Shown here one piece after another: positions 3,880-47,002 of a stretch of DNA of 64,000 bases. The stretch is from Deltaproteobacteria bacterium (GTDB lineage Bacteria > CG03 > SLGR01 > JBDRKX01), in contig JAIVZN010000001.1 in NCBI GenBank assembly GCA_048634875.1, forward strand, positions 3,858-67,857, written 5' to 3'. The translations under genes were made by a program, and so were the position numbers. The notes under the pieces were generated by a model, which was given only the letters and a program-made list of their open reading frames with translations, was not told the origin of the DNA and made no database searches. Within the stretch, counting starts at the first letter, position 1. The number at the start of each line of letters is the position of its first letter.

Positions 3880-3886
3880 TTAATAA

Positions 3887-3915
3887 TTTATATAATAATT
3901 AACAATTATTGTCAA
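3887..3915 (-). promoter_or_regulatory. Candidate sigma70-like promoter (TTGACA-17-TATAAA) ending 7 nt before the PPC-gene ATG, implying a leaderless transcript
   Basis: Minus-strand TTGACA at 3915-3910 and TATAAA at 3892-3887; AT-rich context so chance match is possible. Confidence 0.3.
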
Positions 3916-3931
3916 AAATTCATTTCAACCG

Positions 3932-4030
3932 CAAATAAATCCTTTATTGAGACCTAAATGATGTATTTTTTGCGACTTGTGACTTTTTATAGAAACTATG
4001 AAAACTTGTTTGACCCGGCTCATGTCTGTT
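3932..4030. repeat. Dispersed intergenic hairpin repeat, family A, copy 1 (left half plus extension variant)
   Basis: taaatcctttattgagacctaaatgatgtattttttgcgacttgtgactttttat... shared with copies at 9043, 51567, 59077. Confidence 0.85.
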
Positions 4031-7235: not shown

Positions 7236-8933
7236 TTAACTTTCAACTTCAGCAAAGCGTCCTTCCAGTTTCCTACCTGCCAGCTCCATTGCCTTCTCAT
7301 ATGATTTCCTTAAAGTAACTTTGCTGAGGCCTGTTTCTACCATATCCCAGGGAAGCTCCTCCATTTTTTCAAAATCCCTATAATAATAATCCTTCCAATC
7401 CATACCATTATCTTTAAATGCCTTTTCCCAGATATTAAAGTCAAAATGCTCCCCCCATTGATCAAAACGGGCGCCATTCTTCCATGCACTATAAACTACT
7501 ACAGAAAGCGTTGAATCCGCTCTTACCATTATACTCTCTAATATATGCTGTCCGTAATGAATACCTTTAATATCTACTGCGGCTTTTTTCTTTATAAATT
7601 TAATTTTTTCTTCCAGGATATCCGGGTCATTGGCCTTAAGCCACTGAAAAGGCGTGTGAGCTTGAGGCACTAAAGGAGATATAGTAACATTTACTTTCAG
7701 TCCACTAAGTTTTCTCACTTCCCTTATAAACTCAACAATCTCCTGAATATCTTCCATTGTCTCACCGGGTAACCCGACCAAAAAATAAAGCTTTATCTTA
7801 TTCCAGCCTTTTGAGGCAGCAATCTTTGCTGCTTCTATTACATCAGCATTTTTTACATTCTTATTTATTACTCTTTTTAATTTCTCTGACGGTGTCTCAG
7901 GAGCAAAAGTTAAACCTCCTTTTTTAAGTCTTGTAAGCCTGTCAGATAATTCTCCTGGAAAGCTCGCAGGCCTCATACTGGACATCACTATAGAAACACC
8001 TAAATCCCTGAAAGCATAATGAAGTTCGTCTAAAATATCAAGAAGCTCAGGATGGTCTGTTGCAGAAAGCGAAGTAAGAGCTATTTCGTCATGACCTGTA
8101 GAAGCTACTGAATTTTTAGCAATCTCCATGATTTGTTCGGTGCTCTTCTCTCTGTACGGATTATAAATTACCGTTGCCTGACAAAACCTGCAGTTATTTT
8201 TACAGCCCCTGTTTATCTCAATATTAAGACGGTTATGCGGTATATCAACAACTGCAACAGGCGGGTTCACAGGGAAAAACTTATTATTAAACTCAGAATA
8301 TATTGCTATTTCTGTACTTTTGCTTTTACCCGGAATATATACTCCTTTCATATCAAGTGCAATATTTAAAAACTTCTCTTTATCCTGATTTTCTTCAAAT
8401 GTTTTCAGTAGTTCAGGTAACATTGCTTCTGCTTCACCAATATAAATTAAGTCAAGAAACTCTGATAATACCGCAGGATTACTACAGGCAGGCCCTCCGC
8501 CTATGATCAGCGGAGCGGAAACTTTGCGATTTCTCCTGAATAGCTCTATGCCGGCTAAATCAAGCATATTCAAAAAATTCGTATATGAAAGTTCATAATG
8601 AAAAGAGAAACCTATTATGTCAAATTCTTTTGCCGGCGACCTTGTTTCAAGAGAAAACAAGGAAATATTGTTCTGCCTCATCCATTTCTCCATATCAAGC
8701 CACGGAGCAAAGCACCTCTCGCAGGCAAAAGAACTGTGATTATTTATAATATTGCCGACAGTATGATAACCCAAACTGCTCATTCCTATAACATAATCAT
8801 CGGGGAAACACAAAAGAAACTTCTTTGCTCCTTTCTTCCCGGGATAAGAGTTCCATTCTGTACCGAGATATTTACCCGGCTTTTGAAACTGTTTTAATAC
8901 ATTTTCTGTTATCCCTACTCCCTCATTACTCAT
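7236..8933 (-). CDS. B12-binding-domain radical SAM protein (TIGR03960-like uncharacterized family)
   Basis: 565 aa; CKNNCRFCQA CxxxCxxC radical SAM motif; N-terminal B12-binding-like region. Confidence 0.8.
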   Translation of the reverse strand: MSNEGVGITENVLKQFQKPGKYLGTEWNSYPGKKGAKKFLLCFPDDYVIGMSSLGYHTVGNIINNHSSFACERCFAPWLDMEKWMRQNNISLFSLETRSPAKEFDIIGFSFHYELSYTNFLNMLDLAGIELFRRNRKVSAPLIIGGGPACSNPAVLSEFLDLIYIGEAEAMLPELLKTFEENQDKEKFLNIALDMKGVYIPGKSKSTEIAIYSEFNNKFFPVNPPVAVVDIPHNRLNIEINRGCKNNCRFCQATVIYNPYREKSTEQIMEIAKNSVASTGHDEIALTSLSATDHPELLDILDELHYAFRDLGVSIVMSSMRPASFPGELSDRLTRLKKGGLTFAPETPSEKLKRVINKNVKNADVIEAAKIAASKGWNKIKLYFLVGLPGETMEDIQEIVEFIREVRKLSGLKVNVTISPLVPQAHTPFQWLKANDPDILEEKIKFIKKKAAVDIKGIHYGQHILESIMVRADSTLSVVVYSAWKNGARFDQWGEHFDFNIWEKAFKDNGMDWKDYYYRDFEKMEELPWDMVETGLSKVTLRKSYEKAMELAGRKLEGRFAEVES

Positions 8934-9042
8934 TCTTCATTCCTTTTTTTCATATGTAAATAAACCATTTATCGGGCTTGATAAATCAAGCCCCTACAAA
9001 ATCAAGCCTTTACAGTTTTGCGTAGGGGTCAGATTTATCCGA

Positions 9043-9215
9043 CCATTTATTGAGTCCTAAATGATGCATTTTTTGCGAGCTTTAAGACTTTTGCCAAAGG
9101 CAAAAAGTCTCCGGAGCAACAAAATACATTTTTAGGGCTCAATTATTTTCACCCAGCTCCTGTACGCAGGAGCTGGATTCATCCGCTTTTGTGCTGGCTC
9201 GCCGGCATGTCCGTT
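9043..9215. repeat. Dispersed intergenic hairpin repeat family A, copy 2 (both halves plus extra hairpins)
   Basis: ccatttattgagtcctaaatgatgcattttttgcgagctttaagacttttgccaaaggcaaaaagtctccggagcaacaaaatacatttttagggctcaattattttcaccc, then cagctcctgtacgcaggagctg hairpin; region 8940-9040 also holds hairpin gggcttgataaatcaagccc. Confidence 0.85.
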
Positions 9216-10472: not shown

Positions 10473-12232
10473 TTTAATTTAAACGCTTTCAAAATTCCTC
10501 TTGCTACAGGCATTGCTGATGTTGAACCATATCCGCCATTTTCTACTAAAACCACTATAGCAATCTCTGGATCATCAACAGGCGTAAAACATGCAAACCA
10601 TCCGTGATCATCGCCAGATGGAGCTTCAGCAGTGCCTGTCTTACTGGCAACTTCAAAAGGTAGATTAAGAAATTTTGCTGTCCCGTAATCCGTCACTTTT
10701 TTCATTGCCTCTTTAATTTTCTTAAATGTATCTATGGAAATATCTATATTTTTTTCAAGTTTAGGAGTATTTTTTTCCAGTACTTTCTTATCAGAAGATA
10801 CTACCATTTTAACAATATGAGGCGCGTACATCTTTCCTTCTGTTGCTATCACAGATATCATTTTTAAAATCTGCAGCGGGTTTACAAGCACATACCCCTG
10901 TCCCACACACATATTTGCAGTATCTCCGGGGTACCACCCTGTGCCGGCGTGCTTCTTTTTCCATTTCCGGTCTGGAATTAAACCTGTTTTTTCTCCTTCA
11001 AAGATGCCCTGCGATAACTTACCAAGCCCCATTTTTTTAGCATTTTTATAAATAGCATCTACCCCTATATCCATACCCAATTGATAAAAATACACATTAC
11101 AGGAATTTGCAATTGCTTCTAATAAGTTCAGCCTCCCGTGTTTTTTATCTTTCCAGCATCTATAAACTTTTTTATCGTAACCTATTTTTATAGAACCTTT
11201 ACATATATACTCAGTGTTAACATTTAAAATATCTAATTCTAACGCACTGATTGCTGTTATTAACTTAAAAACAGAGCCCGGAGCGTACTGCCCCTGTATC
11301 ACCCTGTCAAACAACGGATATTCCGGGTCCTCAAATATTTCCTTTGCTTTATCTATTGAAAGCGGTAAAGTAAAATCCTCAGGATTAAAACCCGGTTTAG
11401 AAAGCCATACAAGTATTTCGCCTGTCTCAGGTTTCATTGCAACCACCGCGCCGGCTCTATCACCCATGGCTCTCATAGCTGCTTCCTGTAAATCCCAGTC
11501 TATAGTCAACAGTAAATCATTTCCAATTTCAGGCATGCAGGTATTGATAATTCTACGGTGAGTTCCTGTAACTCCAACTTCTACTTCCTGGAAACCATCC
11601 GAACCGCGAAGCACCCCGTCATATACTTTCTCCAGTCCGCATTTGCCGACTTTATCTTTTAATTTGTACCCATATTTCTTCATTCTGCTTAATTCAAATT
11701 TATTTATTTCACCAATATATCCTAAAAAATGAGAACCATTTTCACCAAAGGGATATTTTCTCCGCGGCTCTATTTGAATTGAAGCCTGCCTGAGATGATG
11801 AATATTTTCCTCTATTTTAACTATCTCCTCTCTTGAAAGATAAGTCATAAGTTTAATTACCCCGAACGGCAGTATATCGCCGACTCTAAATCTTTTAAGA
11901 ATACTTTCCCTTGACCTGCCTGTTATCCGGGAGAGCTTTTTAGCAATCTTATTTTTTTCTTCAACACTAAGCCCGCGAGATGCAATATAAAGTGAATACA
12001 CAGGTTGATTTCCTGCAAGTTTTCTTGATTTTCTATCAAATATTCTGCCCCTTGGAGCAGGAATATAGAAATACTGTATTCTGTTTTTTTCAGCTTTCCT
12101 CCAGTAATAGTCTCCTTTTAATACCTGTAACTGAAAAAGCCTGAGTGCAAAAATTGAAAAAATCAGAATTAACAATATTTTTGCCCACCTGAATCTTTGC
12201 GCAGGCAGGAAAAAATAACTTTTATTTAGCAT
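10469..12232 (-). CDS. mrdA: Penicillin-binding protein 2 (elongasome transpeptidase)
   Basis: 587 aa; N-terminal TM, PBP dimerisation and transpeptidase domains (SxxK in LVENGGYGSTSA region); ATGA overlap with rodA. Confidence 0.85.
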   Translation of the reverse strand: MLNKSYFFLPAQRFRWAKILLILIFSIFALRLFQLQVLKGDYYWRKAEKNRIQYFYIPAPRGRIFDRKSRKLAGNQPVYSLYIASRGLSVEEKNKIAKKLSRITGRSRESILKRFRVGDILPFGVIKLMTYLSREEIVKIEENIHHLRQASIQIEPRRKYPFGENGSHFLGYIGEINKFELSRMKKYGYKLKDKVGKCGLEKVYDGVLRGSDGFQEVEVGVTGTHRRIINTCMPEIGNDLLLTIDWDLQEAAMRAMGDRAGAVVAMKPETGEILVWLSKPGFNPEDFTLPLSIDKAKEIFEDPEYPLFDRVIQGQYAPGSVFKLITAISALELDILNVNTEYICKGSIKIGYDKKVYRCWKDKKHGRLNLLEAIANSCNVYFYQLGMDIGVDAIYKNAKKMGLGKLSQGIFEGEKTGLIPDRKWKKKHAGTGWYPGDTANMCVGQGYVLVNPLQILKMISVIATEGKMYAPHIVKMVVSSDKKVLEKNTPKLEKNIDISIDTFKKIKEAMKKVTDYGTAKFLNLPFEVASKTGTAEAPSGDDHGWFACFTPVDDPEIAIVVLVENGGYGSTSAMPVARGILKAFKLK

Positions 12233-12671: not shown

Positions 12672-12719
12672 AATAATTGGATAATAGGGGGTATTAGGTT
12701 CCCTATTCCCCTTTCCCTA

Positions 12720-14940: not shown

Positions 14941-15018
14941 TGCCTAATTCTCCATTCTCTCTTTTTTTAGTGCACAATCTCTTAGTCTCCCAGTCTCCTA
15001 ATCTCCAATTCTTAATTC

Positions 15019-16662: not shown

Positions 16663-16729
16663 CATATTTGTCACTTCCCTCCATCTTAATTGGGTAATAG
16701 GTATTGGGTTCCCCATTCCCTTTTTTTCA

Positions 16730-17125
16730 TTATACTCTTCTGGCTTTGGGTGGCCGGCATCCATTGTGAGGAATTGCAGTAATATCCTGGACAGAAATAA
16801 TTTCCAGCCCTTCTGCCTCTAAACTCCTTATTGCCGTTTCCCTTGATGAACCAGGCCCCTTAACTCTTATCCTTACCTTCCTCATTCCATTATTTTTGAT
16901 TACTTTCCTGGCTGCAGTCTGCGCAGCAAGCCCTCCTGCATACGCAGTCCCTTTTTTTGAACCTTTCATTCCAATACCGCCAGCAGTGGCCCAGGTAAGG
17001 ACATTTCCCTCTTCATCGGTTATTGAAACAATTGTATTGTTAAAAGTGCTTTTTATGTATGCTATTCCTGAATTTACCTTTACTTTTTTCTTCCGTTTTG
17101 TTTTTGTATCACTTTTTTTAGGCAT
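16730..17125 (-). CDS. rpsK: 30S ribosomal protein S11
   Basis: 131 aa; S11 signature. Confidence 0.93.
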
Positions 17126-17507: not shown

Positions 17508-17533
17508 AATTACCTTTCAACTTTTGCATTTTC

Positions 17534-17647
17534 TTAGCCCTGCCTCTGTTTATGACGCGGATTAGAGCACAACACCCTTACCACACCTTTCCTTCGTATA
17601 ACTTTACAATTTGGACATATTGGCTTTACTGATGCTCTAACTTTCAT
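17534..17647 (-). CDS. rpmJ: 50S ribosomal protein L36 (not in ORF track, <60 aa)
   Basis: Minus-strand translation [37 protein letters not shown] between infA and rpsM. Confidence 0.9.
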
Positions 17648-17662
17648 AATCTTCCTTCTTTT

Positions 17663-18648: not shown

Positions 18649-18718
18649 TTCTCAATTCTTTACCTAATCTCGCAATCTCCCAGTCTCCTAATCTCCAATT
18701 TTTACTATCAAAGAACAA

Positions 18719-19249
18719 CTACACAAATGCTCTTATATCTTCAAAGATTTCATCAATTTTTCTATTGCCGTCTATCTCATTTAAAATATGCTTTTTTCTA
18801 TAATAATCAATTAAAGGTTGGGTTTGTTTATAATAAGTCTCAATTCTCGCTTTAATAGTGTCTTCTGTATCATCTTCCCTTTGTCTGTTTTTCAGCCTTT
18901 TAATTACTTCTTCCTCTGGAATTGTAATATAAAAAACCCTGTCTAAATTCTCCAATTTATCAAACTCTTCTGCCTGAATTATAGTGCGGGGAAACCCGTC
19001 TAAGATATAACCATCCTTCACATCCTCTTGACTCATTCTGTCTTTTACTATACCTAAAACTATATCATCAGGTATAAACTTTCCTTCTTTCATTATTTTT
19101 TGCACCTTTACTCCAAAATCAGTTCTTTTTTCAGCAGCATCCCTGAAAATATCTCCTGTTGAAATATGAGGAATTCTTAAAAACTCAGCAAGCTTTTTTG
19201 CCTGAGTTCCTTTACCTGCGCCTACAATTCCAATCATCACTATCTTCAC
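18719..19249 (-). CDS. adk: Adenylate kinase (short form, no zinc lid)
   Basis: 176 aa; GxxGxGKGT P-loop, between secY and map. Confidence 0.9.
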   Translation of the reverse strand: MKIVMIGIVGAGKGTQAKKLAEFLRIPHISTGDIFRDAAEKRTDFGVKVQKIMKEGKFIPDDIVLGIVKDRMSQEDVKDGYILDGFPRTIIQAEEFDKLENLDRVFYITIPEEEVIKRLKNRQREDDTEDTIKARIETYYKQTQPLIDYYRKKHILNEIDGNRKIDEIFEDIRAFV

Positions 19250-19259
19250 TCGTAACTCA

Positions 19260-20579
19260 TCACTTGATATTAAAGTGCCTGCCCTTTAACCTGCCTTTTT
19301 TCATAAACCCTTCATATTGTCTCATAATGAGATGAGACTCTAACTGACCCATGGTATCAAGAGCAACTCCCACAACAATTAAAAGAGCGGTTCCGCCAAA
19401 ATAAAAAGGGACATTAAATATTCTCTCAAAATAAGAAGGCAGAATAGCAATACAAACAATAAATATTGCGCCTACAAAAGTAATTCTCGTTAAAACTTTA
19501 TCAATAAAATCTGCTGTAGGCTTACCAGGTCTTATACCTGGAATGAAACCACCCCACTTTTTCATATTTTCTGCTATATCGCGTGGATTGAAAGTTATAG
19601 CAGTATAAAAATAACAGAAAAAAATAATAAGACCCGCATAAATAATAGTTCTTGCCCAGAAACCAGGCCTGAGATACTGGCTGATGGCTACAAAAACAGG
19701 TGAATTCGGGAAAAATTGCGATAACTGTATAGGCAAAAGAAGTACAGCCATTGAAAATATTACTGCAATAACACCTGATTGATCCACCTTCAGCGGAAGA
19801 TAAGTACTCTGCCCGCCATACATCTTTCTACCTACAACTCTTTTAGCATACTGGACTGGAATCTTTCTCTGTCCCTGCTCAACAAAAACCACTACCATAG
19901 TCACAAGCACCATTGCTGTAGTTATAAACAATGCAGTAAAAAGACTCATTTCTTCAACTCTTATCATCCTGAAAAGATTGTTTACTCCTGCAGGCATACG
20001 GGCTACAATTCCTGTAAATATAATAAGAGAGATTCCATTACCAATACCATCGTCAGTAATTCGTTCTCCAAGCCACATTATAAGAATAGTTCCTGTCATA
20101 AGAGTTATAACTGTTATAAGTTGAAATCTTAAACCAGGGTCATGCACAACCCTGACACCTCCGGTCTCCATAGACTGCATCCAGAAAGTCAGACCAAACG
20201 CCTGTATAGCTGCAATTGCCACTGCAGCATATCTTGTTATCTGGTTAATCTTTTTTCTTCCTGCTTCTCCTTCTTTTTGAAGTCTTTCAAGATAAGGTAT
20301 TGTAGTTCTGAGTAAACTCATGATAATAGAAGCATTTATATACGGCATAATACCCAGCGCAAATACTGAAAGCCTCCCAAGCGCCCCACCTGAAAACATA
20401 TCTAAAAAACCAAAGAGCGTTCCTGCCTGTGCCTCAAAAAATGCCTTTAATGTCCTTACATCTACTCCAGGCACCGGTATGGTAGTACCAATTCTATATA
20501 CCACAAGAATTAAAAGTGTAAAAAGTATCTTCTTCTTTAAATCAGCTATTTTAAAAACATTACCGAAACCTTTAAGCAT
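19260..20579 (-). CDS. secY: Preprotein translocase subunit SecY
   Basis: 439 aa, 10-TM SecY signature. Confidence 0.95.
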   Translation of the reverse strand: MLKGFGNVFKIADLKKKILFTLLILVVYRIGTTIPVPGVDVRTLKAFFEAQAGTLFGFLDMFSGGALGRLSVFALGIMPYINASIIMSLLRTTIPYLERLQKEGEAGRKKINQITRYAAVAIAAIQAFGLTFWMQSMETGGVRVVHDPGLRFQLITVITLMTGTILIMWLGERITDDGIGNGISLIIFTGIVARMPAGVNNLFRMIRVEEMSLFTALFITTAMVLVTMVVVFVEQGQRKIPVQYAKRVVGRKMYGGQSTYLPLKVDQSGVIAVIFSMAVLLLPIQLSQFFPNSPVFVAISQYLRPGFWARTIIYAGLIIFFCYFYTAITFNPRDIAENMKKWGGFIPGIRPGKPTADFIDKVLTRITFVGAIFIVCIAILPSYFERIFNVPFYFGGTALLIVVGVALDTMGQLESHLIMRQYEGFMKKGRLKGRHFNIK

Positions 20580-21021
20580 TTATCTTTCCCCCTGCTTTTT
20601 CTATCTTTTCTTTAGCTTTTACTGACAGGCTGCACCCTGATACATTTATCTTTTTCTTAATTTCCCCATTACCTAAAACCTTAACTCTGTACTTACCTTT
20701 GATTAAACCTTTTTCTTTTAGCTTTTCAGGGGACACAACTTCTCCACTTTTAAATTTATCTGAAAGCTGACTGACATTAACTATCTCTATTTTTTCAGCA
20801 AACATCTTATTGCTGAAGCCTCTCTTTGGCACTCTTCTTGTAAGAGGCATCTGTCCGCCTTCAAAACTAACTTTCTTTGAAAGTCCTGTTCTATGGCCGC
20901 TTCCTCCCCTGCCACGACCGCAACTTCTTCCTTTACCGGAAGCCGGCCCGCGGCCTTTCCTGACTTTCTTTTTCTTTGAACCTTTAGCAGGCTGTATAGA
21001 ATCTATTCTTAATATATCCAT
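20572..21021 (-). CDS. rplO: 50S ribosomal protein L15 (true start MDILRI; ORF-track extension through repeat rejected)
   Basis: L15 glycine/arginine-rich N-terminal region; start codon at 21021-21019 directly abuts repeat family B. Confidence 0.9.
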   Translation of the reverse strand: MDILRIDSIQPAKGSKKKKVRKGRGPASGKGRSCGRGRGGSGHRTGLSKKVSFEGGQMPLTRRVPKRGFSNKMFAEKIEIVNVSQLSDKFKSGEVVSPEKLKEKGLIKGKYRVKVLGNGEIKKKINVSGCSLSVKAKEKIEKAGGKINA

Positions 21022-21027
21022 CTTCTT

Positions 21028-21136
21028 TAAGGAATGTGGTATGAGGTATGTGGGAGTAGGGAATAATATCTTGCTTTCTTCAGCGAAGCGTTCTTCCATC
21101 TTCTATCTTTCCTCATTCCTATACCCTCATTCTTCA
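21028..21136. repeat. Repeat family B copy (rpsE-rplO intercistronic hairpin element, long variant)
   Basis: aaggaatgtggtatgaggtatgtgggagtagggaataa...cctcattcctataccctcattcttc; imperfectly self-complementary arms. Confidence 0.9.
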
Positions 21137-21643
21137 TTATAATTCTTTCGCCTCTTTGCCTCTGCCTTCAGCTATACACTCTTTTGTTCTAAGTCTTTTT
21201 AAACCATTTATAGTGGCGTATACAACATTAAGGGAATTTCTGGAACGCAGGCACTTTGCAAAAATATTTTTAACACCTACTGCTGTAAGTACATCCCTTG
21301 CAGGACCTCCTGCAATAATTCCTGTTCCGGGACACGCAGGTTTTAATAGAATTTCAGCCGCTCCGCATCTTCCTATTATTGAATGCGGAATAGTAAAATC
21401 TTCAGTTAATGATACATTATTCATATTTTCTTTTGCTTTAGCAATACTCTTTTCTATTGATATTCTAACATCATTTGCTTTCCCGATAGCACAGCCAATT
21501 CTGCCATTTCCATCACCAACAACAGTTAGAGTAGAAAACCCGAACCTTTTCCCACCTTTTACAACTTTAGCTACCCGCTTTATATCAACTACTCTTTCTA
21601 TTAATTCCTGGCCTTCTTTCTGTAATAATCCTGACTTTTCCAT
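21137..21643 (-). CDS. rpsE: 30S ribosomal protein S5
   Basis: 168 aa; S5 dsRBD and C-terminal domain; no rpmD (L30) between rpsE and rplO. Confidence 0.95.
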   Translation of the reverse strand: MEKSGLLQKEGQELIERVVDIKRVAKVVKGGKRFGFSTLTVVGDGNGRIGCAIGKANDVRISIEKSIAKAKENMNNVSLTEDFTIPHSIIGRCGAAEILLKPACPGTGIIAGGPARDVLTAVGVKNIFAKCLRSRNSLNVVYATINGLKRLRTKECIAEGRGKEAKEL

Positions 21644-21738
21644 TAAACCTTTCCACCTTCCACTTTTTTGCCATTCAGCCGCTCGCTGACGCTACGCTTT
21701 TCATGTATAGACATGCACTCGCTCCTTCATACTTTCCA

Positions 21739-22038
21739 CTAAAATTCCAGTCCTCCTTCTCTTGCGCCTTCAGCAAGCTCCTTAACTGCACCATGGTACT
21801 TAAATTTACCGCGGTCATAATATACTTTTTTCACTTTTTTTTCAAGAGCTTTCCCGGCAACAAGTTTCCCTACTTCATAAGCCCGTTCTTTTGGACTCTC
21901 AAACTTTTTATTCTTTATATCAAATGAAAGCGACGACACACCTGTTACAACAATACCATTAAAATCATTTATTATCTGAGCATATATATGCCTGTTTGAC
22001 CTAAAAACCGCTAATCTATGCCTTTCTATCTTTCTCAT
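21739..22038 (-). CDS. rplR: 50S ribosomal protein L18
   Basis: 99 aa ending ...AREGGLEF; followed by unusual 95-nt GC-richer spacer before rpsE. Confidence 0.9.
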
Positions 22039-22595
22039 TTGCCAGTACCTGTAAAACTACCGCCGATAGCTGTTTTTCCTGCTTTCTTTCTTACCTTTTC
22101 ACCTTTATATCTTATGCCCGAGCCCTTATAGGGTTCTGGCGGTTGAATATCTCTTATTTCAGCGGATACCTCTCCAACTTTCTGTTTATCTATCCCTGAA
22201 ATTTCAATTATATTTTTCTCAACTTTTGCCTGAATCCCTTCAGGTAGCTGAAAATCAACAGAGTGGGAAAATCCAACTTCTAAAACCAGGCTCTTTCCCT
22301 GTACTTTTGCCTTTTTTCCCCTTCCTATAATTTCTAATTTTTTACTAAATCCTTCTTTAACACCTGTTACCATATTATATATAAGTGTCCTTGTCAGCCC
22401 GTGAAGACTCCTTAATTTTATAGAATCATTTTCCCTATTTATTATTATCTGCCCTTCCTCTATACGGACTTTTATCCCATCAGGTATTTTATATTCAAGT
22501 TTTTTCCCTGAAGACTCCACTGCTATATCCTGTCCGGATATACTGACATTGACACCCTCGGTTATCTTTATTGGCATTTTTCCTATTCTACTCAT
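22035..22595 (-). CDS. rplF: 50S ribosomal protein L6 (true start [11 protein letters not shown])
   Basis: L6 two-domain signature; start codon abuts repeat family B. Confidence 0.9.
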
Positions 22596-22601
22596 CTTAT
22601 T

Positions 22602-22684
22602 TAAGGAATGTGGTATGAGGTATGTGGGAGTAGGGAATAATTTTTTTCCCCTCATTCCTCATTCCTATACCCTCATTCTTCGTT
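22602..22684. repeat. Repeat family B copy (rpsH-rplF junction)
   Basis: Near-identical to 21028 and 24151 copies. Confidence 0.9.
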
Positions 22685-23083
22685 CTACCACACATATAAA
22701 ATTACTTCACCGCCAAGATGGTTCTTTCTGCATTCCTTATCAGTCAGCAAACCTCTTGAAGTTGATATTATTGCTCTTCCCAAACCCTCAAGTACTTTTG
22801 GAATGTTATCTACTCCAACATAAATCCTGCGGCTGAGATGTGAAATTCTCTTTATATCCTGTATTACAGAATCGCCATCCACCGTATATTTTAAATATAT
22901 TTTCAATATTCCCTGTTTGTTATCTTCAATATTTTTATAATTTGCAATATATCCCTCATCCTTTAAAAGGCGGGCAATCTCCTGCATTATTTTTGACGAC
23001 GAAACATCAACCTGGCTCTTTTTCCGCACAAGAGCATTTTTTACACGACAAATCATATCTGATATTGGATCTGTTACTACCAT
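22685..23083 (-). CDS. rpsH: 30S ribosomal protein S8
   Basis: 132 aa; S8 signature. Confidence 0.95.
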
Positions 23084-23262
23084 GATGATTTTACAACTCC
23101 CGGAATTTTTCCTTCAGACGCTAACTTTCTAAAACATAGCCTGCATATACCGAAATCTCTCATAAATGCACGCCTTCGCCCGCATAAATTGCATCTGTTA
23201 TACTTCTGTACCTTATACTTTGGTTCTCTCTTCTGTTTTACTACTAATGCTTTTCTTGCCAT
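23077..23262 (-). CDS. rpsZ: 30S ribosomal protein S14 type Z (zinc-binding)
   Basis: 61 aa with CxxC...CxxC. Confidence 0.92.
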
Positions 23263-23287
23263 CTTCCTTTTAACCTTCCATTTTCAA

Positions 23288-23836
23288 CTATTTAACAAAC
23301 GGAAATCCCAACAACTCAAACAGCTTTATGGATTTTTCCCTGTCTTTTTTGTCAGTAACAATTGTAATACTCATCCCTTTAATTGATTTTAGCTTATCCA
23401 TATCAACCTCAGGGAAAATTGATTCATCTGTAATACCTATAGTTAAATTTCCTTGAATATCAAACCTTCTTTTTAAACCGCTAAAATCTCTTATTCTCGG
23501 AATTGCTATCCTGAGCAGCTTTTCTAAAAACCCGTACATCATTTTTCCACGCAGAGTAACTCTGCATCCAATAGGCATTCCTTTTCTTAGTGTAAAATTA
23601 GATATGGCCTTTTTTGCCCTTGTAACAGAAGGTTGCTGCCCTGTTATTGAGACAATTTCATTCATAGCTTCTTCTAAAACACTTTTGTCGTCCTTTGCAG
23701 ATTTCAAACCCATATTGATCACTATTTTTTCTATTTCAGGAAGAGCATATACATTTTTAACCTTAAACTCTTTTAACATCTCGGGAATTACTTCCTCTGT
23801 ATATTTTTTATATAATAATGCTGATATCTGCCTCAT
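23288..23836 (-). CDS. rplE: 50S ribosomal protein L5
   Basis: 182 aa; L5 signature. Confidence 0.95.
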   Translation of the reverse strand: MRQISALLYKKYTEEVIPEMLKEFKVKNVYALPEIEKIVINMGLKSAKDDKSVLEEAMNEIVSITGQQPSVTRAKKAISNFTLRKGMPIGCRVTLRGKMMYGFLEKLLRIAIPRIRDFSGLKRRFDIQGNLTIGITDESIFPEVDMDKLKSIKGMSITIVTDKKDREKSIKLFELLGFPFVK

Positions 23837-24144
23837 ACAATCATCTCACCGCATTTCTTACAGACTCTTACTTTCTCGCCATCTTCTAACCTGTCAAACT
23901 TTATTCTTGTAGGCTGTGAACACTTTGGACATACAAGCTGAAGGTTTGAAATATGGACAGAAGCTTCTTTTTCTACAACTCCACCCGGATTCTGCTGGGT
24001 CGGACGTGTATGTCTCTTAACAATATTAATTTTTGAGACTATAACACGGTTAGAATTCGCAAATATTTTCATAACCTCGCCCTGCTTTCCCTTATCTTTA
24101 CCTTTTTTTACTATAACCGTATCTTTTTTCTTAATCTTTAACAT
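23833..24144 (-). CDS. rplX: 50S ribosomal protein L24 with C-terminal CxxC...CxxC zinc-ribbon extension
   Basis: KOW domain MLKIKKKDTVIVKKGKDKGKQG..., then CPKCSQPTRIKFDRLEDGEKVRVCKKCGEMIV. Confidence 0.88.
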   Translation of the reverse strand: MLKIKKKDTVIVKKGKDKGKQGEVMKIFANSNRVIVSKINIVKRHTRPTQQNPGGVVEKEASVHISNLQLVCPKCSQPTRIKFDRLEDGEKVRVCKKCGEMIV

Positions 24145-24150
24145 TTTCTT

Positions 24151-24231
24151 TAAGGAATGTGGTATGAGATATGTGGGAGAAGGGAATAAACATTTTTCCC
24201 TCATTCCTCATTCCTATACCCTCATTCTTCA
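24151..24231. repeat. Repeat family B copy (rplN-rplX junction)
   Basis: Near-identical to 21028 and 22602 copies. Confidence 0.9.
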
Positions 24232-24600
24232 TTATATTACCTCCGGAGCAAGTGAAATTATTTTTGTAAATTCTTTCTCTCTTAACTCCATTGCTATCGG
24301 ACCGAATACCCTGGTTCCTCTGGGTTGTTTTTTTTCATCTATTAAAACAGCGCCGTTATCATCAAATCTTACAACAGTTCCATCTTTCCTTTTAACAGGA
24401 TATTTAGTTCTAACTATCACTGCTTTTACTACCTCTCCCTTTGAAACACCGCTGGCAGGAATAGCATCCTTAACTGCGCCTACAATTATATCGCCAACCC
24501 TGGCGTATCTTTTTCTTGTACCTCCAAGTACATTAATACACTGTATTTTTTTTGCCCCGGAATTATCCACAACATTTAATAAGGTTTCCCTCTGAATCAT
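24232..24600 (-). CDS. rplN: 50S ribosomal protein L14 (start [10 protein letters not shown])
   Basis: L14 signature; ATGA overlap with rpsQ. Confidence 0.93.
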
Positions 24601-29282: not shown

Positions 29283-29594
29283 TTATGCCTTTATCTCCAC
29301 CCCGATGCCTGAAGGAAGCTCTAATTTACCAAGTTCATCAACTGTTACCGAAGTCGGATTATGTATGTAAATTAATCTCTTATGTATCCGCATTTCAAAT
29401 TGATCCATACCCCTTTTATCCACATGAGGCGACCTCAGTACTGAATATTTCTTTATTCTTGTCGGAAGCAGTATCGGGCCGGAAACCCTGGAGCCTGTTC
29501 TGGTAATTGTATCTACTATGCGCTTGACAGATTTATCAAGCATCCTGTGGTCATATCCCTTTAATTTAATCTGTATTTTCTGTTCAACCGCCAT
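29283..29594 (-). CDS. rpsJ: 30S ribosomal protein S10
   Basis: 103 aa. Confidence 0.95.
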
Positions 29595-30784
29595 TATTCA
29601 ACTACTTCAGCTACAACACCCGCTCCAACCGTATGTCCGCCTTCCCTTATCGCAAACCTGAGTCCCTGCTCCATTGCCACTGCCTGTATTAACTCGCCCT
29701 CTATATCCACATTATCGCCGGGCATCACCATCTCCCTGCCTTCAGGTAACTTTAACACTCCTGTCACATCTGTCGTACGAAAATAAAATTGAGGCCTGTA
29801 TCCGCTGAAAAACGGAGTGTGTCGCCCGCCTTCTTCCTTGCTTAATATATATACCTTCCCCTTAAACTTCTTATGCGGTGTTATCGTCTTAGGCGCCGCT
29901 ATCACCTGACCCCTCTCTATCTGCGTCTTATCTACACCTCGAAGCAACACTCCTATGTTGTCGCCGGCCTGCGCCTCTTCCATCTCCTTGCGAAACATCT
30001 CTACTCCTGTTACCACGGTCTCCTTACTGTCCATTAATCCCACTATCTCTACCTTGTCCGATACCTTTACCTTACCCCTCTCTACCCTGCCTGTCGCTAC
30101 TGTACCGCGCCCTGTTATTGAAAATACATCTTCTACGCTCATCAAAAACGGCTTATCAACTTCCCTGTCAGGCTGGGGTATATTCGCATCCAGCGCTTCC
30201 ATTAATTCCCCTATTACTTTACCTTCATCGCTATCCGCCTCACTATTTAACGCCTTTAACGCAGAACCCTTTATTATTGGTATATCATCTCCGGGAAACT
30301 CATATTTGTTTAATAATTCCCTTATCTCTAACTCTACTAACTCCAACAACTCAGGATCATCTACCTGATCTACCTTATTCATAAATACTACCATTGCAGG
30401 CACGCCTACCTGCCTCGCTAACAATATATGTTCCTTTGTCTGAGGCATCGGACCATCTGCCGCCGACACCACCAGTATCGCGCCGTCCATCTGCGCCGCT
30501 CCTGTTATCATATTCTTTATATAATCCGCATGACCGGGACAGTCTATATGCGCATAATGCCTGTTCTCTGTCTCATATTCCACATGCGCTGTCGCTATCG
30601 TTAAACCCCTCTCCTTTTCCTCGGGCGCATTGTCTATCTCATCTACATTCTTGCAGGATGCCAGTCCTTTGGAACTTAAATATCTCAATATCGCTGCTGT
30701 TAATGTCGTCTTCCCGTGATCTACATGCCCTATTGTCCCTACATTAACATGAGGCTTTGTCCTCTGAAATTTTTCCTTTGCCAT
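29594..30784 (-). CDS. tuf: Elongation factor Tu (copy 1, str-operon copy)
   Basis: 396 aa GHVDHGKTT...; ~98% identical at nt level to second copy at 45306-46496. Confidence 0.97.
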
Positions 30785-30798
30785 CTCTTCCTCCTTCT

Positions 30799-32853
30799 TT
30801 ATCCCAGCATCTTATCAGAAATTTGTTTTGGTAACTTCTGAAAATATAAAGGCTCCATAGAATATGTAGCCCTCCCCTGTGTTAATGACCGGAGCGCTGT
30901 TGCATAGCCAAACATCTCTGAAAGAGGTGCTTCACCTTTTATAATTTTATTTTCCTCTTCATTTATTAACTCTTTAACACTGCCCCTTCTGGAATTAATA
31001 TCTTCTAATACATCGCCTAAATATTCATTTTGAACCATAATTTCTATTTTCATTATAGGCTCAAGAAAAATAGATACCCCATTCTGTAGTGCCTTTTTAG
31101 TAACTTTAGATGCCGCTATCTTAAAAGCAAGTTTTGATGAATCAACCTCATGGAACGAACCATCTAAAAGGGTTGCTTTAATATCGGTTACTTCAAATCC
31201 TCTTAACACACCATTTGTTAAAGATTCCGAGACACCCTCTTCTATTGAAGGAATAAATTCCTTTGGTATTTTCCCTTCTCTTATCTTATTTTCAAATATT
31301 ATACCTTCTCCTAATTCAAGCGGCTTAAATTCCATTACTACATGACCGTATTGACCCCTGCCGCCTGTCTGTTTTATATGTCTTTCTTCTACTGAAACTT
31401 TTTTAGTAATTGTCTCTTTATATGTCACTACAGGCTCGGACACCCTGCAATTTATACTAAATTCATCCCGCAACCTCTCTACAATCACTTCCAAATGAAG
31501 TTCACCCATTCCCTTAATAATAATCTGTCCGCTTTCCTTGTCAACTTTCAATTTTAATGTCGGATCTTCTGAAATAAGCTTACTTAAAGCATCGCCGAGT
31601 CTTTCTTCTTCTGTCTTATTTGCAGCTTCTATTGCTACTGAAGCTACAGGTTCGGGAAAATGTATCGGCTCTAAAAGTATTGGATTCTTTTCATCACATA
31701 AATTATCTCCTGTAGAAGTTTTTTTAAGCCCTACAATTGCAGCAATTTCTCCTGCGGAAATTTTGTCTCTGTCAAGCCTTGAATTTGCATGCATTTCAAG
31801 TATCCTTGAAATACGCTCTCTCTTTTTTAAATTAAGATTATATATCATACCACCTTTTTTTAATGTACCAGAATACACCCTTATATAAACAAGCCTTCCT
31901 ACATATGGATCAGACATAATCTTAAAAACCAAGGCAGAAAAAGGAGAATCAGTATCTGCAATTCTATCTTCATCCATATTAGTTAGAGGATTAATTCCCT
32001 TAACAGGCGGAATATTCAAAGGGGAAGGCAGATAATCTACTATTGCATCCATCAATAATTGAATCCCTTTATTCTTCAGTGCTGCCCCGCAAAACACAGG
32101 TATAAATTTATAGGTTACTGTCGCCTCCCTTATAGCGTCTTTTAAAAGAGCCACAGGAATTTTTTCTTCTTCAATATATTTTTCCATTACCCTATCATCA
32201 ATTTCAGCAACTGCCTCAATTAATTTTCCCCTCATCTTTACAGCTTCTAGAAGCATTTCACCGGGTATCTCGGTAATTTCTATCTTCTCTCCAATCTTAT
32301 CTAAATGAATCTTGGCATTCATTTCAACTAAATCAATTATACCCTTAAAATCATCTTCATGCCCCAAAGGAAGCTGAACTGGACAGGCATGCGTGGCTTT
32401 TAATCTATCTCTTATTTCACCAACCACTTTCATGAAATCCGCACCCACCCTGTCCATTTTATTTACAAATGTTATTCTGGGAACTTTATACCTGTTAGCC
32501 TGCCGCCATACTGTTTCTGACTGCGGCTGTACTCCGCCGACACCACAAAAAACTACCACACAGCCATCTAATATCCGGAGCGACCTTTCAACTTCAACAG
32601 TGAAATCAACATGTCCTGGAGTATCAATAATATTCACTATACTGCCATTCCAGTTGCATGTAGTTGCAGCAGAAGTAATTGTAATACCTCTTTCCTGTTC
32701 CTGTTTCATCCAGTCCATTACTGCGGTACCGTCATGAACTTCACCCATTTTGTAAGTTTTCCCTGTATAATAAAGTATTCTCTCGGTAACAGTAGTCTTT
32801 CCTGCATCTATATGAGCAACAATGCCTATATTTCTAATTTTGTTTAAATCCAT
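30799..32853 (-). CDS. fusA: Elongation factor G (likely start [11 protein letters not shown]; ORF-track start 32934 adds 27 aa of leader)
   Basis: [10 protein letters not shown]-domain and domains II-V. Confidence 0.95.
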
Positions 32854-42082: not shown

Positions 42083-42095
42083 TTTATTCCTCCTT

Positions 42096-42160
42096 GTTCC
42101 GTGAAGCGTAAAGCGTAAATCGTGAAGTCTTTTTCATCTTTACGCTTTACCCTTCACGCT
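42096..42160. repeat. Repeat family C hairpin (GTAAAGCGTAAA/TTTACGCTTTAC arms) spanning rplJ stop to rplL SD
   Basis: cgtgaagcgtaaagcgtaaatcgtgaagtctttttcatctttacgctttacccttcacgc; related copies at 46515, 46661, 56914, 15990. Confidence 0.8.
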
Positions 42161-43522: not shown

Positions 43523-43650
43523 CTCTCATTATCCTTACATCTATAAATCTCCCTCTAACTTCTTTCCAGAGAAATTCAGAGATTGAGAAACTGTGTTAGA
43601 AATTAAGAAAATAGAAAACAGATATTAAGAATATTTTGATTTTTAAATTT

Positions 43651-43705
43651 CTTAATCTCTTCTCAGTCTCTTAATCTCCTAATCTCCTAATCTCCTAATC
43701 TCTAA
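43651..43705. repeat. Tandem short repeat (CTAATCTCC x3 on plus strand = GGAGATTAG in mRNA sense) in rplK-rplA spacer
   Basis: tctcagtctcttaatctcctaatctcctaatctcctaatctctaat; similar motifs at 14981-15018, 18655-18705, 45010-45030, 50500-50535. Confidence 0.8.
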
Positions 43706-44126: not shown

Positions 44127-44249
44127 AATACCATTCAGTCTCTCACTCCTCCATGCTTAAACATGCGTTCATGACATTCGGTCGTTCAAGGCATTCAGTC
44201 GCTCTCTTCATTTGGATTAACCAACGTTTGCTCCCTCATCCCTCATCCC

Positions 44250-45140: not shown

Positions 45141-45141
45141 T

Positions 45142-45306
45142 TTATCCCTTAATTGACTTATGCACCGTATGCTTTCTACAAAACCTACAGTGCTTCTTTA
45201 ATTCTAACTTATCCTGTCTGTGAAGTTTATTTCTTCTGTATGTATAGTTTCGGCGTTTACACTCCTGACATTCAAGATGCTGAACTATCCTATCCTTTTT
45301 TGCCAT
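45142..45306 (-). CDS. rpmG: 50S ribosomal protein L33 (not in ORF track)
   Basis: [54 protein letters not shown]; zinc-ribbon L33; start overlaps tuf stop (TAATG). Confidence 0.9.
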   Translation of the reverse strand: MAKKDRIVQHLECQECKRRNYTYRRNKLHRQDKLELKKHCRFCRKHTVHKSIKG

Positions 45307-46496: not shown

Positions 46497-46514
46497 ATCT
46501 TCCTCCTCTTTATT

Positions 46515-46570
46515 TCCGTAAAGCGTAAAGCGTAAATCGTGAAGTGTTTTTTTTTACCCTTTACGCTTTA
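46515..46570. repeat. Repeat family C hairpin between tRNA-Thr(GGT) and tuf
   Basis: ccgtaaagcgtaaagcgtaaatcgtgaagtgtttttttttaccctttacgctttactctttacg. Confidence 0.8.
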
Positions 46571-46576
46571 CTCTTT

Positions 46577-46652
46577 ACGACCATGGTGGAGCTGGGAACG
46601 GGATTCGAACCCGTGACCTCATGCTTACCATGCATGTGCTCTACCAGCTGAG
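46577..46652 (-). tRNA. tRNA-Thr (anticodon GGT)
   Basis: GCTGGGATAGCTCAGCTGGTAGAGCACATGCATGGTAAGCATGAGGTCACGGGTTCGAATCCCGTTCCCAGCTCCA. Confidence 0.88.
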
Positions 46653-46660: not shown

Positions 46661-46712
46661 GCATCATAAACCGTAAAGCGTAAATCGTGAAGTGTTTTTC
46701 TCTTTACCCTTT
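46661..46712. repeat. Repeat family C hairpin between tRNA-Gly and tRNA-Thr(GGT)
   Basis: ccgtaaagcgtaaatcgtgaagtgtttttctctttaccctttacgctttac. Confidence 0.8.
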
Positions 46713-46714
46713 AC

Positions 46715-46919: not shown

Positions 46920-47002
46920 TCCTCTATATTTTAGGAATATGAGATGAGGTATACGGAACTAGAGAACAAAAAAAATTTTTCCTCATTCCTCATTCCTTCT
47001 AT
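46920..47002. repeat. Degenerate repeat family B copy filling the tRNA-Thr(TGT)/tRNA-Tyr spacer
   Basis: aggaatatgagatgaggtatacggaactagagaac...cctcattcctcattcct shares both arms with the spc-operon copies. Confidence 0.65.

Follow-up and report, generated by a model that had tools for sequence, protein, structure and literature searches.

Family 1, a repeat that fills three spacers of the spc ribosomal operon in the window (the whole 64-kb stretch of DNA analysed here), is best explained as a lineage-specific, non-coding, dispersed hairpin repeat. It would be one of many families with fast turnover and would be tolerated through preserved translational coupling; we put this reading at roughly 65%. 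We read it as behaving like a MITE or REPIN, with recent, strain-variable copies, in an uncultured Elusimicrobia-like bacterium. Its interpretation as a conserved element controlling the ribosomal operon is not supported. Few gene arrays of bacteria are as conserved and compact as the ribosomal protein operons, whose junctions usually span a few bases or overlap. Within the one species studied here, the locus evolves fastest at its non-overlapping r-protein junctions, and hairpin families replace one another there despite removing the ribosome-binding site of essential genes.

The spc genes studied here are all encoded on the minus strand. Copies A, B and C of family 1 occupy the complete spacers rpsE>rplO, rpsH>rplF and rplN>rplX, and copy D lies between two tRNA genes (Table 1). 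A family profile finds exactly these four copies in the 64 kb, all in one orientation, with scores of 88.8, 88.6, 82.4 and 58.4 bits (E 2e-26 to 6e-17). The lowest score and the E-value of 6e-17 belong to copy D, which is degenerate and lacks the first heptamer units; the first-pass annotation had already placed a degenerate copy there. A 25-nt core of the 5′ arm has three exact matches in the window and a 26-nt core of the 3′ arm has three with at most one mismatch, while 100 shuffles lead us to expect none of either. The same junction sequences are present in the independent assemblies GCA_048634415.1 and GCA_030601005.1 and in Logan SRR19020590, and the repeats are therefore not an assembly artefact. 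The three junction repeats had been called identical. This holds for both arms of A and B, but A has a different loop sequence with about 28 additional nt, and the 3′ arm of C carries two substitutions (B and C are 89% identical over 95 nt). They had also been described as ending 6–7 nt before the ATG, whereas the similarity extends over the complete interval between the upstream stop (TAATGAAGAATGAGG) and the ATG itself (CCTTAAAGAAGATG), with an onset 0–3 nt past the stop codon.

Over its entire length the element forms an imperfect inverted repeat, and it has the terminal inverted repeats of a MITE. This symmetry is real, since the family profile also picks up its own reverse complement (E=4e-4). 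In the 5′ arm, heptamers of the unit GAGGAAT are repeated in tandem, and the complete layout is (GAGGAAT)n, loop and complementary array, with both arms degenerate heptamer arrays. The arms have about 40% G+C. The copies are bordered by TAA...TTAA (A and C) or TAG...TTAA (B). GTAG occurs only internally, on the plus strand of copies A and B, and is gone in C. No promoter-like or terminator-like site was found inside the elements, and exact-match scans of GTDB representatives and JGI metagenomes gave no match.

Table 1. Features discussed in the text, with positions in the window.
Feature	Position	Strand	Remarks
Family-1 copy A	21022–21136	-	entire 115-nt spacer, rpsE stop (21137–21139) to rplO ATG (21021–21019)
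Family-1 copy B	22596–22684	-	entire 89-nt spacer, rpsH stop (22685–22687) to rplF ATG (22595–22593); predicted stem with 5′ arm ~22678–22646 and 3′ arm ~22637–22606
Family-1 copy C	24145–24231	-	entire 87-nt spacer, rplN stop (24232–24234) to rplX ATG (24144–24142); predicted stem with 5′ arm ~24231–24196, loop 24195–24187 and 3′ arm 24186–24151
Family-1 copy D	46920–47002	-	fills the spacer tRNA-Thr(tgt) (47003–47078) > tRNA-Tyr (46833–46919)
5′-arm heptamer array, copy A	21109–21138	-	TRF, 4.3 copies
5′-arm heptamer array, copy B	22650–22678	-	TRF, 4.1 copies
5′-arm heptamer array, copy C	24199–24233	-	TRF period 7, 5.0 copies; CCTCATT on the plus strand, AATGAGG on the mRNA strand
5′-arm heptamer array, copy D	46979–46997	-	TRF, 2.7 copies
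Mini-ORF via copy A	21027–21137	-	ATG overlaps rpsE stop (TAATG); in-frame internal ATG at 21116, GAGGG + 7 nt upstream; stop TAA 21029–21027, 5 nt remain to rplO ATG; 9/500 shuffles as long
Mini-ORF via copy B	22597–22662	-	SD-led ATG at 22662 (GAGGG-TATAGGA-ATG); stop TAA 22599–22597, 1 nt remains to rplF ATG; 77/500 shuffles as long
Mini-ORF via copy C	24131–24232	-	ATG overlaps rplN stop (TAATG); in-frame internal SD-led ATG at 24211; stop TAA 24133–24131, starting 11 nt past the A of rplX ATG; 4/500 shuffles as long
rplO (L15)	20572–21021	-	true start 21021; gene callers extend to 21099 (175 aa)
rplF (L6)	22035–22595	-	true start 22595; gene callers extend to 22655 (206 aa)
rplX (L24)	23833–24144	-	true start 24144; gene callers extend to 24204 (123 aa)
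rplR>rpsE insert	21644–21738	-	95 nt, different from family 1
GGGAA/CCCAA hairpin	16683–16742	-	rpsK>rpsD; different family, 44 nt
CGTAAAG-family heptamer-array hairpins (n=2)	46497–46586, 46663–46726	-	either side of tRNA-Thr(ggt), in the tRNA-Gly>tRNA-Thr and tRNA-Thr>tuf spacers
CGTAAAG family, additional copy	42083–42139
GGAGATTA-family long hairpin	43523–43694	-	rplK>rplA spacer
Direct GGAGATTA-unit arrays	14941–15018, 18649–18718, 50479–50537
Families found in place of family 1 in other strains	12672–12719, 55522–55606
PurA/DUF3276-like ORF	55239–55523

Occupancy of the junctions differs between strains whose flanking genes are 96–99% identical. At the family-1 junctions other strains have unrelated hairpin families, footprints or nothing, although copy A is also found in strain L004. 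Three unrelated families occupy rpsH>rplF across three strains, and two each occupy rplN>rplX and rpsE>rplO; families that replace family 1 elsewhere also sit in the window. Other junctions vary in the same way. The secY>adk spacer has four allele lengths (10, 52, 58 and 79 nt), rplR>rpsE measures 95 nt in the window versus 0 nt in L004 and L013 (a TAAATG junction), and rpsK>rpsD measures 11, 19 or 55 nt. The hairpin at the last junction is absent in L003 and L016, which have the 11-nt spacer, and L013, L017 and L019 have a footprint-like spacer of 19 nt. Junctions with a 4-nt ATGA overlap are free of invasion in every strain compared. In the nearest other relatives sampled (S8 protein 73–78% identical) the element is absent and the spacers at these junctions are 1–7 nt long. 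Insertion polymorphism and multiple dispersed copies (four in 64 kb) are likewise MITE features. The first-pass annotation had listed a site-specific MITE among four candidate roles. It is the best fit of the four, in that the family is dispersed and strain-variable, with its tRNA-spacer copy lying outside any start-codon context.

Mobility would depend on a putative trans-acting enzyme. No transposase or RAYT-like gene was seen within the 64-kb window, which carries a degenerate group II intron RT. Family 1 shows no clean target-site duplication, and no empty site exists among the strains compared. In other families, the difference between filled and empty alleles extends to adjacent bases and to the stop and start codons; the swapped segments take in both codons and neighbouring bases, which is not a simple cut-and-paste signature.

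The window contains 31 arrays of period 7 or 8, compared with 2–8 in 20 shuffles. Units of the heptamer families include GAGGAAT, CGTAAAG, GGAGATTA, GTGGAAA, AAAATGC and others, and the CGTAAAG, AAAATGC and AATTGTAAA families have no GGA or GAGG motif. The species carries at least seven or eight such hairpin families, which would spread and turn over rapidly. In the packed r-protein operons their survival would be limited to the few non-overlapping stop>start junctions, together with tRNA spacers.

As the first-pass annotation had reported, the three genes downstream of family 1 lack a Shine-Dalgarno sequence. Predicted anti-SD pairing is −1.0, +2.3 and −1.0 kcal/mol at the three starts, versus −9 to −12 kcal/mol for SD-bearing genes of the window, and L24, L6 and L15 resemble overlap-coupled genes in this respect. 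The element would be co-transcribed with the operon and would have displaced the SD of all three; we infer that insertion is tolerated because translational coupling is preserved. Two routes can be proposed. Fold-back of the hairpin could leave only a few nucleotides between the upstream stop and the downstream ATG. Alternatively, the GAGGG-N7-ATG in the 5′ arm of each junction copy, joined by TAATG in A and C, could open a mini-ORF across the element, whose termination may hand ribosomes over to the SD-less start. The mini-ORFs have 21–36 codons; relative to the A of the downstream ATG, their ends lie anywhere from 8 nt ahead of it to 11 nt past it. The rplR>rpsE insert similarly contains an SD-led ORF of 23 codons with a stop that overlaps the rpsE ATG (TAATG). 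Eight of 24 distinct junction inserts have an ORF that covers at least 70% of the insert and ends at the next start, compared with 1.5 in shuffles and 2.9 in rotations (P≤0.0015); these eight derive from only about five independent families. A relay ORF is not universal, as there is none at the rpsH>rplF elements of L004 and L013 nor in the secY>adk fills. Composition also favours open frames, since the purine-rich arms have an ATG in each heptamer and the pyrimidine-rich arms have no stops. The translational coupling suggested earlier can be kept in a modified version: coupling probably permits insertion and is not why the element exists.

Inverted GGAATGA/GGAATTA arrays of the same polarity are also present in diverse viral contigs (41–67% GC), where they are 2.4–3.8 times commoner than in a composition-matched control, and the palindromes are all of one polarity. 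This hints at a wider, uncharacterised repeat class. It is conceivable, though on balance unlikely, that inverted heptamer-array palindromes form an undescribed class of elements shared by the bacterium and diverse phage contigs, always built as purine-rich array, loop and pyrimidine-rich array. A dedicated mechanism would then insert them exactly from stop to start, and those persisting in essential operons would compensate for themselves, with coupling to the SD-less gene restored either by fold-back or by a relay ORF of the form SD-ATG...stop.

The arrays may instead be platforms for an RNA- or ssDNA-binding factor (S1, CsrA-like, HutP-like with NAG-N4 periodicity, or PUR-like) or ribosome standby sites, with the hairpin as a masked form and a post-transcriptional function. 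Their frequency far above chance fits such a role, as do the inverted arrays of the viral contigs and the position next to start codons at many junctions, where some include a working SD. Start-adjacent TAACTGA heptamers, r-protein operons included, have been proposed as regulator sites (PMC4679880), and the window has a PurA/DUF3276-like ORF. However, at least seven different heptamers or octamers can stand in for one another at the same junctions, and a binding platform would therefore need many specific binders, or none; the families devoid of GGA and GAGG are a further difficulty. We regard this explanation as rather improbable.

Slightly more improbable still is that the spc operon carries a dedicated cis-regulatory RNA (an RNase III site, attenuator or translational operator) that tunes the stoichiometry of L15, L6 and L24; the first-pass annotation had also put forward the first two of these roles. 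Family 1 does lie exactly between cistrons in a single orientation, removes the SD and has a long imperfect stem of about 26–28 interrupted predicted pairs. The hairpin is, however, thermodynamically modest and folds no better than shuffles: the MFE is −24.9 to −26.3 kcal/mol, the z-score against dinucleotide shuffles is only −0.8 to −2.1, and the antisense strand folds 4–6 kcal/mol more stably than the mRNA strand. None of 15 consensus pairs shows a compensatory change, and covariation is thus absent. Rfam at gathering threshold recognizes the tRNAs and the group II intron and leaves family 1 unmatched, and an E-value search on family 1 gives just chance-level matches to miRNA precursors (E=0.5–4.4). 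The replacement by unrelated sequences in sister strains, the short spacers of the relatives and the copy between two tRNAs all speak against such regulation. An r-protein autoregulatory leader or a known structured RNA was considered separately and rejected, with Rfam, covariation and conservation in relatives all negative.

An equally improbable explanation is that the repeats are not mobile and arose in place, by replication slippage of SD-like heptamers and fold-back (quasi-palindrome) templating, followed by recombination or gene conversion between strains and junctions. Unit numbers do differ between 99.9% identical strains, with indels of 7 and 17 nt, and some alleles look like partial remnants, for example GTTACGA at secY>adk and the one of 19 nt at rpsK>rpsD. 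The swap of the stop-to-start segment without target-site duplication and the single polarity of all palindromes would also be accommodated. Against this, the three junction copies have near-identical arms and the fourth is found in a tRNA operon at a distance of 22 kb, and copying is therefore needed between loci that share no flanking homology; identical families moreover reappear at unrelated loci of different strains.

Least credible of all is the proposal that the in-frame ATGs of the 5′ arm are real starts that give L6, L24 and L15 N-terminal extensions of 20–26 residues, as in public gene calls (206, 123 and 175 aa): the frame is open and AGGA precedes the in-frame ATG by 7 nt in B and C, but a pyrimidine-rich arm is expected to leave a frame open and the nearest other relatives sampled begin at the conserved MSR.../ML... 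start. The extensions are false, as the first-pass annotation had concluded, because other junction families hold in-frame stops, with which callers give a 186-aa L6 (L004, L013) and a 103-aa L24 (L004, L026). A coding insert in frame, like the Rickettsia palindromic element, was rejected: the extension is not conserved and alternative inserts contain in-frame stops.

The inserts have a practical effect in public MAG annotations, where they cause false N-termini of L6, L24 and L15. If the proposed tolerance through fold-back and relay mini-ORF is true, it would show how selfish DNA can colonise essential operons without cost and would provide a natural allele series for the reach of termination-reinitiation coupling.

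Phage T4 gene 38/25 hairpins and TAATG/ATGA overlaps are examples of split ribosome-binding sites and reinitiation coupling. They resemble the present case in that an SD-less cistron can still be translated with the help of an RNA loop-out hairpin or of a short ORF upstream that ends at the next start, but they are mechanisms and not element families, and here the coupling is deduced from sequence. Split sites and coupling are reviewed in PMC12548453. Organelle hairpin repeats, e.g. in sponge mitochondria, comprise several families that invade short spacers of a compact genome (PMC2800124), and family 1 shares this repeated invasion in the absence of a known transposase. They belong to another genetic system, with heptamer periodicity not reported and no issue of translational coupling (PMC2800124).

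REP/REPIN sequences are repetitive extragenic palindromes and hairpin doublets mobilised by RAYT transposases (PMC3116915, PMC3733652), with a hallmark G+C-rich palindrome of 20–40 nt and a conserved GTAG or CGTC head (PMC3733652, PMC3184786); bacterial MITEs co-transcribed with operons are reviewed in PMC3184786. Family 1 is similarly short, non-coding and extragenic, with several dispersed copies of strain-variable occupancy right after stop codons inside operons, and its inverted units would form a long imperfect hairpin of ~80–110 nt. It differs in its arms, which are AT-rich degenerate heptamer arrays lacking the conserved head, in the lack of any RAYT gene within the window, and in the coexistence of many unrelated families with few copies each per 64 kb. 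Correia/NEMIS (Neisseria) and ERIC/IRU (enterobacteria) are imperfect inverted repeats of ~80–150 nt, intergenic, co-transcribed and strain-variable in presence, and their RNA hairpin can influence processing or stability. Family 1 matches them in size, whole-element inverted repeat, placement and variable presence. It is unrelated in sequence, has no clear TA or other target-site duplication and no known parent IS, shows a 7-nt periodicity within the arms and fills the full stop-to-start interval. Heptamer repeats in intergenic regions are known too, among them the cyanobacterial STRR. The TAACTGA repeats of Beggiatoaceae, Cyanobacteria and Bacteroidetes are intergenic tandem units that end a few nucleotides from starts, including r-protein operon junctions (fusA, L3, S4), and mostly replace a canonical SD; their function and origin are unknown (PMC4679880). 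The 5′ arms of family 1 share the head-to-tail 7-nt units (4–5 copies by TRF), the position beside the start and the lack of an SD. Their units are neither TAACTGA nor the STRR units CCCCAGT, TTGGTCA or CAACAGT. Those repeats are direct arrays with essentially one heptamer per genome, whereas here there are many heptamers, the family-1 array pairs with its own complement into a predicted hairpin, and strains differ by the exchange of whole inserts.

Nearly every gene from 1 to 46.5 kb of the window (37.6% G+C) lies on the minus strand, and this region is the S10-spc-alpha ribosomal-protein cluster. The family-1 repeat, a hairpin element built of GAGGAAT-type heptamers, occupies three of its intercistronic spacers (copies A, B and C) and one tRNA spacer (copy D). 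Three exact matches to a 25-nt core of the 5′ arm are present, and three matches to a 26-nt core of the 3′ arm have no more than one mismatch; by chance, no such match is expected for either core. A family-1 profile search of the 64 kb finds exactly four copies in a single orientation, and these are the three near-identical repeats and the tRNA-spacer copy reported in the first-pass annotation. A fifth candidate at 8902-8941 was dismissed (nhmmer E=4). Exact-match scans of GTDB species representatives (with the 3′ arm) and of JGI metagenomes (with the 5′ arm) gave no match. The copies resemble each other all the way from the stop codon of the preceding gene (in A and C, TAATGAAGAATGAGG) to the downstream ATG (CCTTAAAGAAGATG), so the element is the entire intercistronic interval. 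A and B have the same arms, and the loop of A is longer and of different sequence. Copy C differs from both by two substitutions in the 3′ arm.

Positions of the repeat copies and of other features in the window
Feature	Location or content	Position	Strand	Size or score
Family 1, copy A	rpsE>rplO spacer	21136..21022	-	115 nt
Family 1, copy B	rpsH>rplF spacer	22684..22596	-	89 nt
Family 1, copy C	rplN>rplX spacer	24231..24145	-	87 nt
Family 1, copy D	fills tRNA-Thr>tRNA-Tyr spacer	47002..46920	-	58.4 bits, E=6e-17
Families replacing family 1 in other strains	heptamer-array hairpin at the second site	12672-12719; 55522-55606
PurA/DUF3276-like ORF	downstream of hairpin	55239-55523	-	94 aa
Separate dispersed repeat	four sites	3880-4030; 8934-9215; 51561-51731; 59036-59524
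nusG>rplK spacer	(GAGGGAT)n array and 17-nt repeat	44127-44249
adk		18719-19249
secY>adk spacer		19250-19259		10 nt
rpmJ (L36)		17508-17662	-
rpmG (L33)		45141-45305	-
tuf copies		29590-30799; 45302-46507
tuf strain differences		29702-29873; 45414-45585
Promoter region	upstream of tRNA-tuf operon	47079-47173	-
Group II intron remnant	RT ORF	59525-60769	-	316 aa
Group II intron remnant	maturase-domain ORF	61146-61281	-	82 aa

Comparison with relatives is the decisive evidence on the nature of these elements. Contigs of the same species were retrieved by exact-protein look-up; some are 99-100% identical (GCA_048634415.1, GCA_030601005.1, SRR19020590) and others 96-97% (SRR19174372, SRR29278629, ERZ25746724 and others). 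Between strains, the coding flanks align perfectly on either side, up to the stop codon and onward from the ATG, and the intervals are wholly different. At rpsH>rplF, where the window has family 1, strain contig L004 has a GGTAATA/GGGAA hairpin and L013 a GATTGTA hairpin. At rplN>rplX, family 1 in the window corresponds to a AATTGTAAAATG hairpin in L004 and L026. At rpsE>rplO the window and L004 share family 1, and L013 carries an AAAATGC hairpin. The window has an rplR>rpsE spacer of 95 nt, where L004 and L013 read TAAATG, and alleles of 10, 52, 58 or 79 nt are found at secY>adk and of 11, 19 or 55 nt at rpsK>rpsD. A 99%-identical strain differs from the window by inserts of 44 and 42 nt, and a 99.97%-identical strain by unit-number changes of 7 and 17 nt. 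Junctions with a 4-nt ATGA overlap are the same in every strain compared. Among species representatives the nearest is an Elusimicrobia MAG, whose S8 is 73% identical (55-58% for Endomicrobiellum species). There the same three junctions measure 1, 7 and 5 nt, and a length of 6 nt is seen in a JGI contig whose S8 is 78% identical. An element regulating the ribosomal operon, as had been proposed earlier, is not supported, given different hairpins or none at the same junctions in sister strains and 1-7 nt in the nearest other relatives sampled. Such complete differences in junction content between near-identical strains with intact flanks are what fast-turnover dispersed repeats filtered by selection would leave, and not what a conserved operon regulator would.

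The same strains show further spacer features. The infA>rpmJ and rpmJ>rpsM spacers of L013 carry additional purine arrays and a CGTAAAG-family hairpin. The short genes rpmJ and rpmG lie within apparent long gaps of the 60-aa ORF list. In strain contig L021 (ERZ25746724), an insert at rplD>rplW (~11900-11985) is related to the rplR>rpsE spacer of the window (HEKRSV.ERLNGKKVE.GK frame) and is joined in frame to the C-terminus of L4, which is called there at 233 aa, not 212 aa.

In the 5′ arm the heptamers are arrayed in tandem (TRF period 7, 4.1-5.0 copies, unit AATGAGG on the mRNA strand), and the 3′ arm carries a degenerate complement of this array. A match of the family-1 profile to its own reverse complement (E=4e-4) shows that the inverted symmetry is real. 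The RNA stem is predicted to be weak (MFE -24.9 to -26.3 kcal/mol; z -0.8 to -2.1 against dinucleotide shuffles). The stem-loop predicted in the first-pass annotation stands as inverted arms with a weak stem. Among the four copies, whose near-identity leaves little room for covariation, 0/15 pairs show a compensatory change. A hairpin shaped for the mRNA strand is rejected, since family 1 folds better by 4-6 kcal/mol as antisense (-30.2 to -31.0) than as sense (-24.5 to -26.3), and 20 junction hairpins of all families sum to -395 kcal/mol sense and -387 antisense, favouring neither strand. Rfam has no match to the elements at the gathering threshold, only chance-level miRNA-precursor matches at the E-value threshold, and coding-strand scans find no promoter or terminator within them. 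Upstream of the tRNA-tuf operon, a near-consensus promoter (TTGACA-17-TAATAT) follows three 10-nt direct repeats (GAATTTGGAA).

As had been noted, L15, L6 and L24 lack an SD: anti-SD complementarity is -1.0 (L24), +2.3 (L6) and -1.0 kcal/mol (L15), compared with -9 to -12 for SD-bearing genes. In this near absence they resemble overlap-coupled genes, so they must rely on the preceding cistron. The stem begins 0-3 nt past the upstream stop and finishes 6 nt short of the ATG, so folding would juxtapose stop and start, and a terminating ribosome would melt the stem base; this is one feature by which coupling could survive. The 5′ arm of every copy does contain the SD-like tracts described earlier, as GAGGG-TATAGGA-ATG, and in A and C a TAATG also overlaps the preceding stop. 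Starting at these ATGs, the ORF traverses the loop and 3′ arm. Between its TAA and the next ATG lie 5 nt in A and 1 nt in B; in C the TAA begins 11 nt after the A of the ATG. Such a mini-ORF, or relay, could preserve coupling to the downstream SD-less start. Of 24 distinct junction inserts, 8 have a relay ORF that covers 70% or more of the insert, against 1.5 in arm-wise shuffles and 2.9 in rotations (P≤0.0015), where the positives represent only about five independent families and arm composition favours open frames. One example is the SD-led ORF of the 95-nt rplR>rpsE insert, whose stop overlaps the rpsE start as TAATG. In several SD-less inserts a relay ORF is absent. Judged from these frames, preservation of coupling by relays is plausible but tentative.

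In-frame ATGs in the 5′ arm also lead gene callers to report extended proteins. L6, L24 and L15 are called at 206, 123 and 175 aa in the NCBI MAGs, and at 186, 103 and 150 aa in strains with other inserts; in the nearest other relatives sampled they begin at the conserved ATG. The extensions are thus false, as first suspected. A look-up of the 186-aa L6 gave no match, since the database record is the extended product. A protein search with the element open frames for other genes with such an extension gave no match, because cluster representatives are unextended forms.

Family 1 is not special among the repeats of the window. Tandem arrays of period 7/8 number 31, against 2-8 in 20 dinucleotide shuffles, and nearly all are intergenic. 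Further units form direct arrays or array-loop-complement hairpins: CGTAAAG (between tRNAs, before tuf and before rplL), GGAGATTA, GTGGAAA, GAGGGAT, GATAGAA, GGGAA/CCCAA and AATTGTAAA. Two families that replace family 1 in other strains are also present, at loci of the window other than those junctions. The nusG>rplK spacer differs in unit number from the near-identical strain L012, which suggests slippage-type instability. A separate dispersed repeat has conserved, partly complementary ends of ~60-85 nt (GGGTGAAAATAATTGAGCCCTAAAAATGTATTTTGTTGC... and ...GCAAAAAATACATCATTTAGGTCTCAATAAAGGATTTATTTAC) around variable cores, and by sequence it looks like a conventional MITE.

Comparable palindromes occur in viral contigs. 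Among IMG/VR stretches the 16-mer GGAATGAGGAATGAGG is found in 64 and GGAATTAGGAATTAGG in 103, compared with 27 for a composition-matched control heptamer. A complementary array lies within 200 nt downstream of 25/162 occurrences (16/71 and 9/91), never upstream, and in 0/27 controls. GGAATGA/GGAATTA arrays, a loop and TCATTCC/TAATTCC follow in this order, many times per contig in some (L031, L032, L039, L042, L049, L057, L058, L063, L065, L075 and others). The G+C content of the host viral contigs is 41-67%. Most of the elements are intergenic, and their start is often ~0-20 nt from a stop codon. Every palindrome seen, in the window and in viral contigs, runs from purine-rich array through loop to pyrimidine-rich array, and the opposite was never seen. 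Reading this as an orientation bias, purine arm first on the mRNA strand, is rejected because such a palindrome shows this polarity whichever strand is read. A viral contig with many of these heptamers had no BLAST match among GenBank phages. The genome is full of purine-rich arrays, and directly downstream of one heptamer-array hairpin lies an ORF whose matches to PurA ssDNA/RNA-binding protein and DUF3276 only just exceed the threshold. Single strands rich in purines are the ligands of PUR proteins.

Because the arms are identical at separate junctions whose flanks are unrelated, copying between loci must have taken place. Both the stop and the start codon belong to the segment that is swapped between strains. 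At secY>adk (window, L003, L013, L018) the 10-nt allele is TGA...GTG, and all three insert-bearing alleles, each of a different family, have a TAA stop and ATG start; the insert appears to supply its own stop and start. Partial insert remnants are present at junctions. Our leading guess, by analogy with REP/RAYT, is spread by a trans-acting enzyme that works on hairpins. No transposase was seen in the window; what it does have is a degenerate group II intron, with split reverse transcriptase and maturase-domain ORFs and a match to Rfam group-II-D1D4-4 (63.7 bits). The rival to such an enzyme is slippage combined with fold-back templating and recombination. The window has two tuf copies, each of which matches the copy at the opposite locus in the other strain at 99.6-99.7% identity, and their strain differences are mirror images, suggesting gene conversion between both copies.

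The interest of the finding lies in within-species turnover at essential junctions, a possible self-compensating coupling relay and a wider class of heptamer palindromes. A site-specific MITE had been among the options: strain turnover supports family 1 as MITE-like in behaviour, and it may be a classical MITE. No clean target-site duplication is seen at the inserts. Literature searches on the heptamers and on ribosomal-operon MITEs found nothing, including any paper that mentions these strings. Unlike REP/REPIN, family 1 has neither a G+C-rich palindrome nor a GTAG/CGTC head. The nearest published parallel is the TAACTGA heptamer repeats, which abut start codons, also inside r-protein operons, and replace the SD (PMC4679880). 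We class family 1 as a previously undescribed variant among small intergenic repeats of known kinds.
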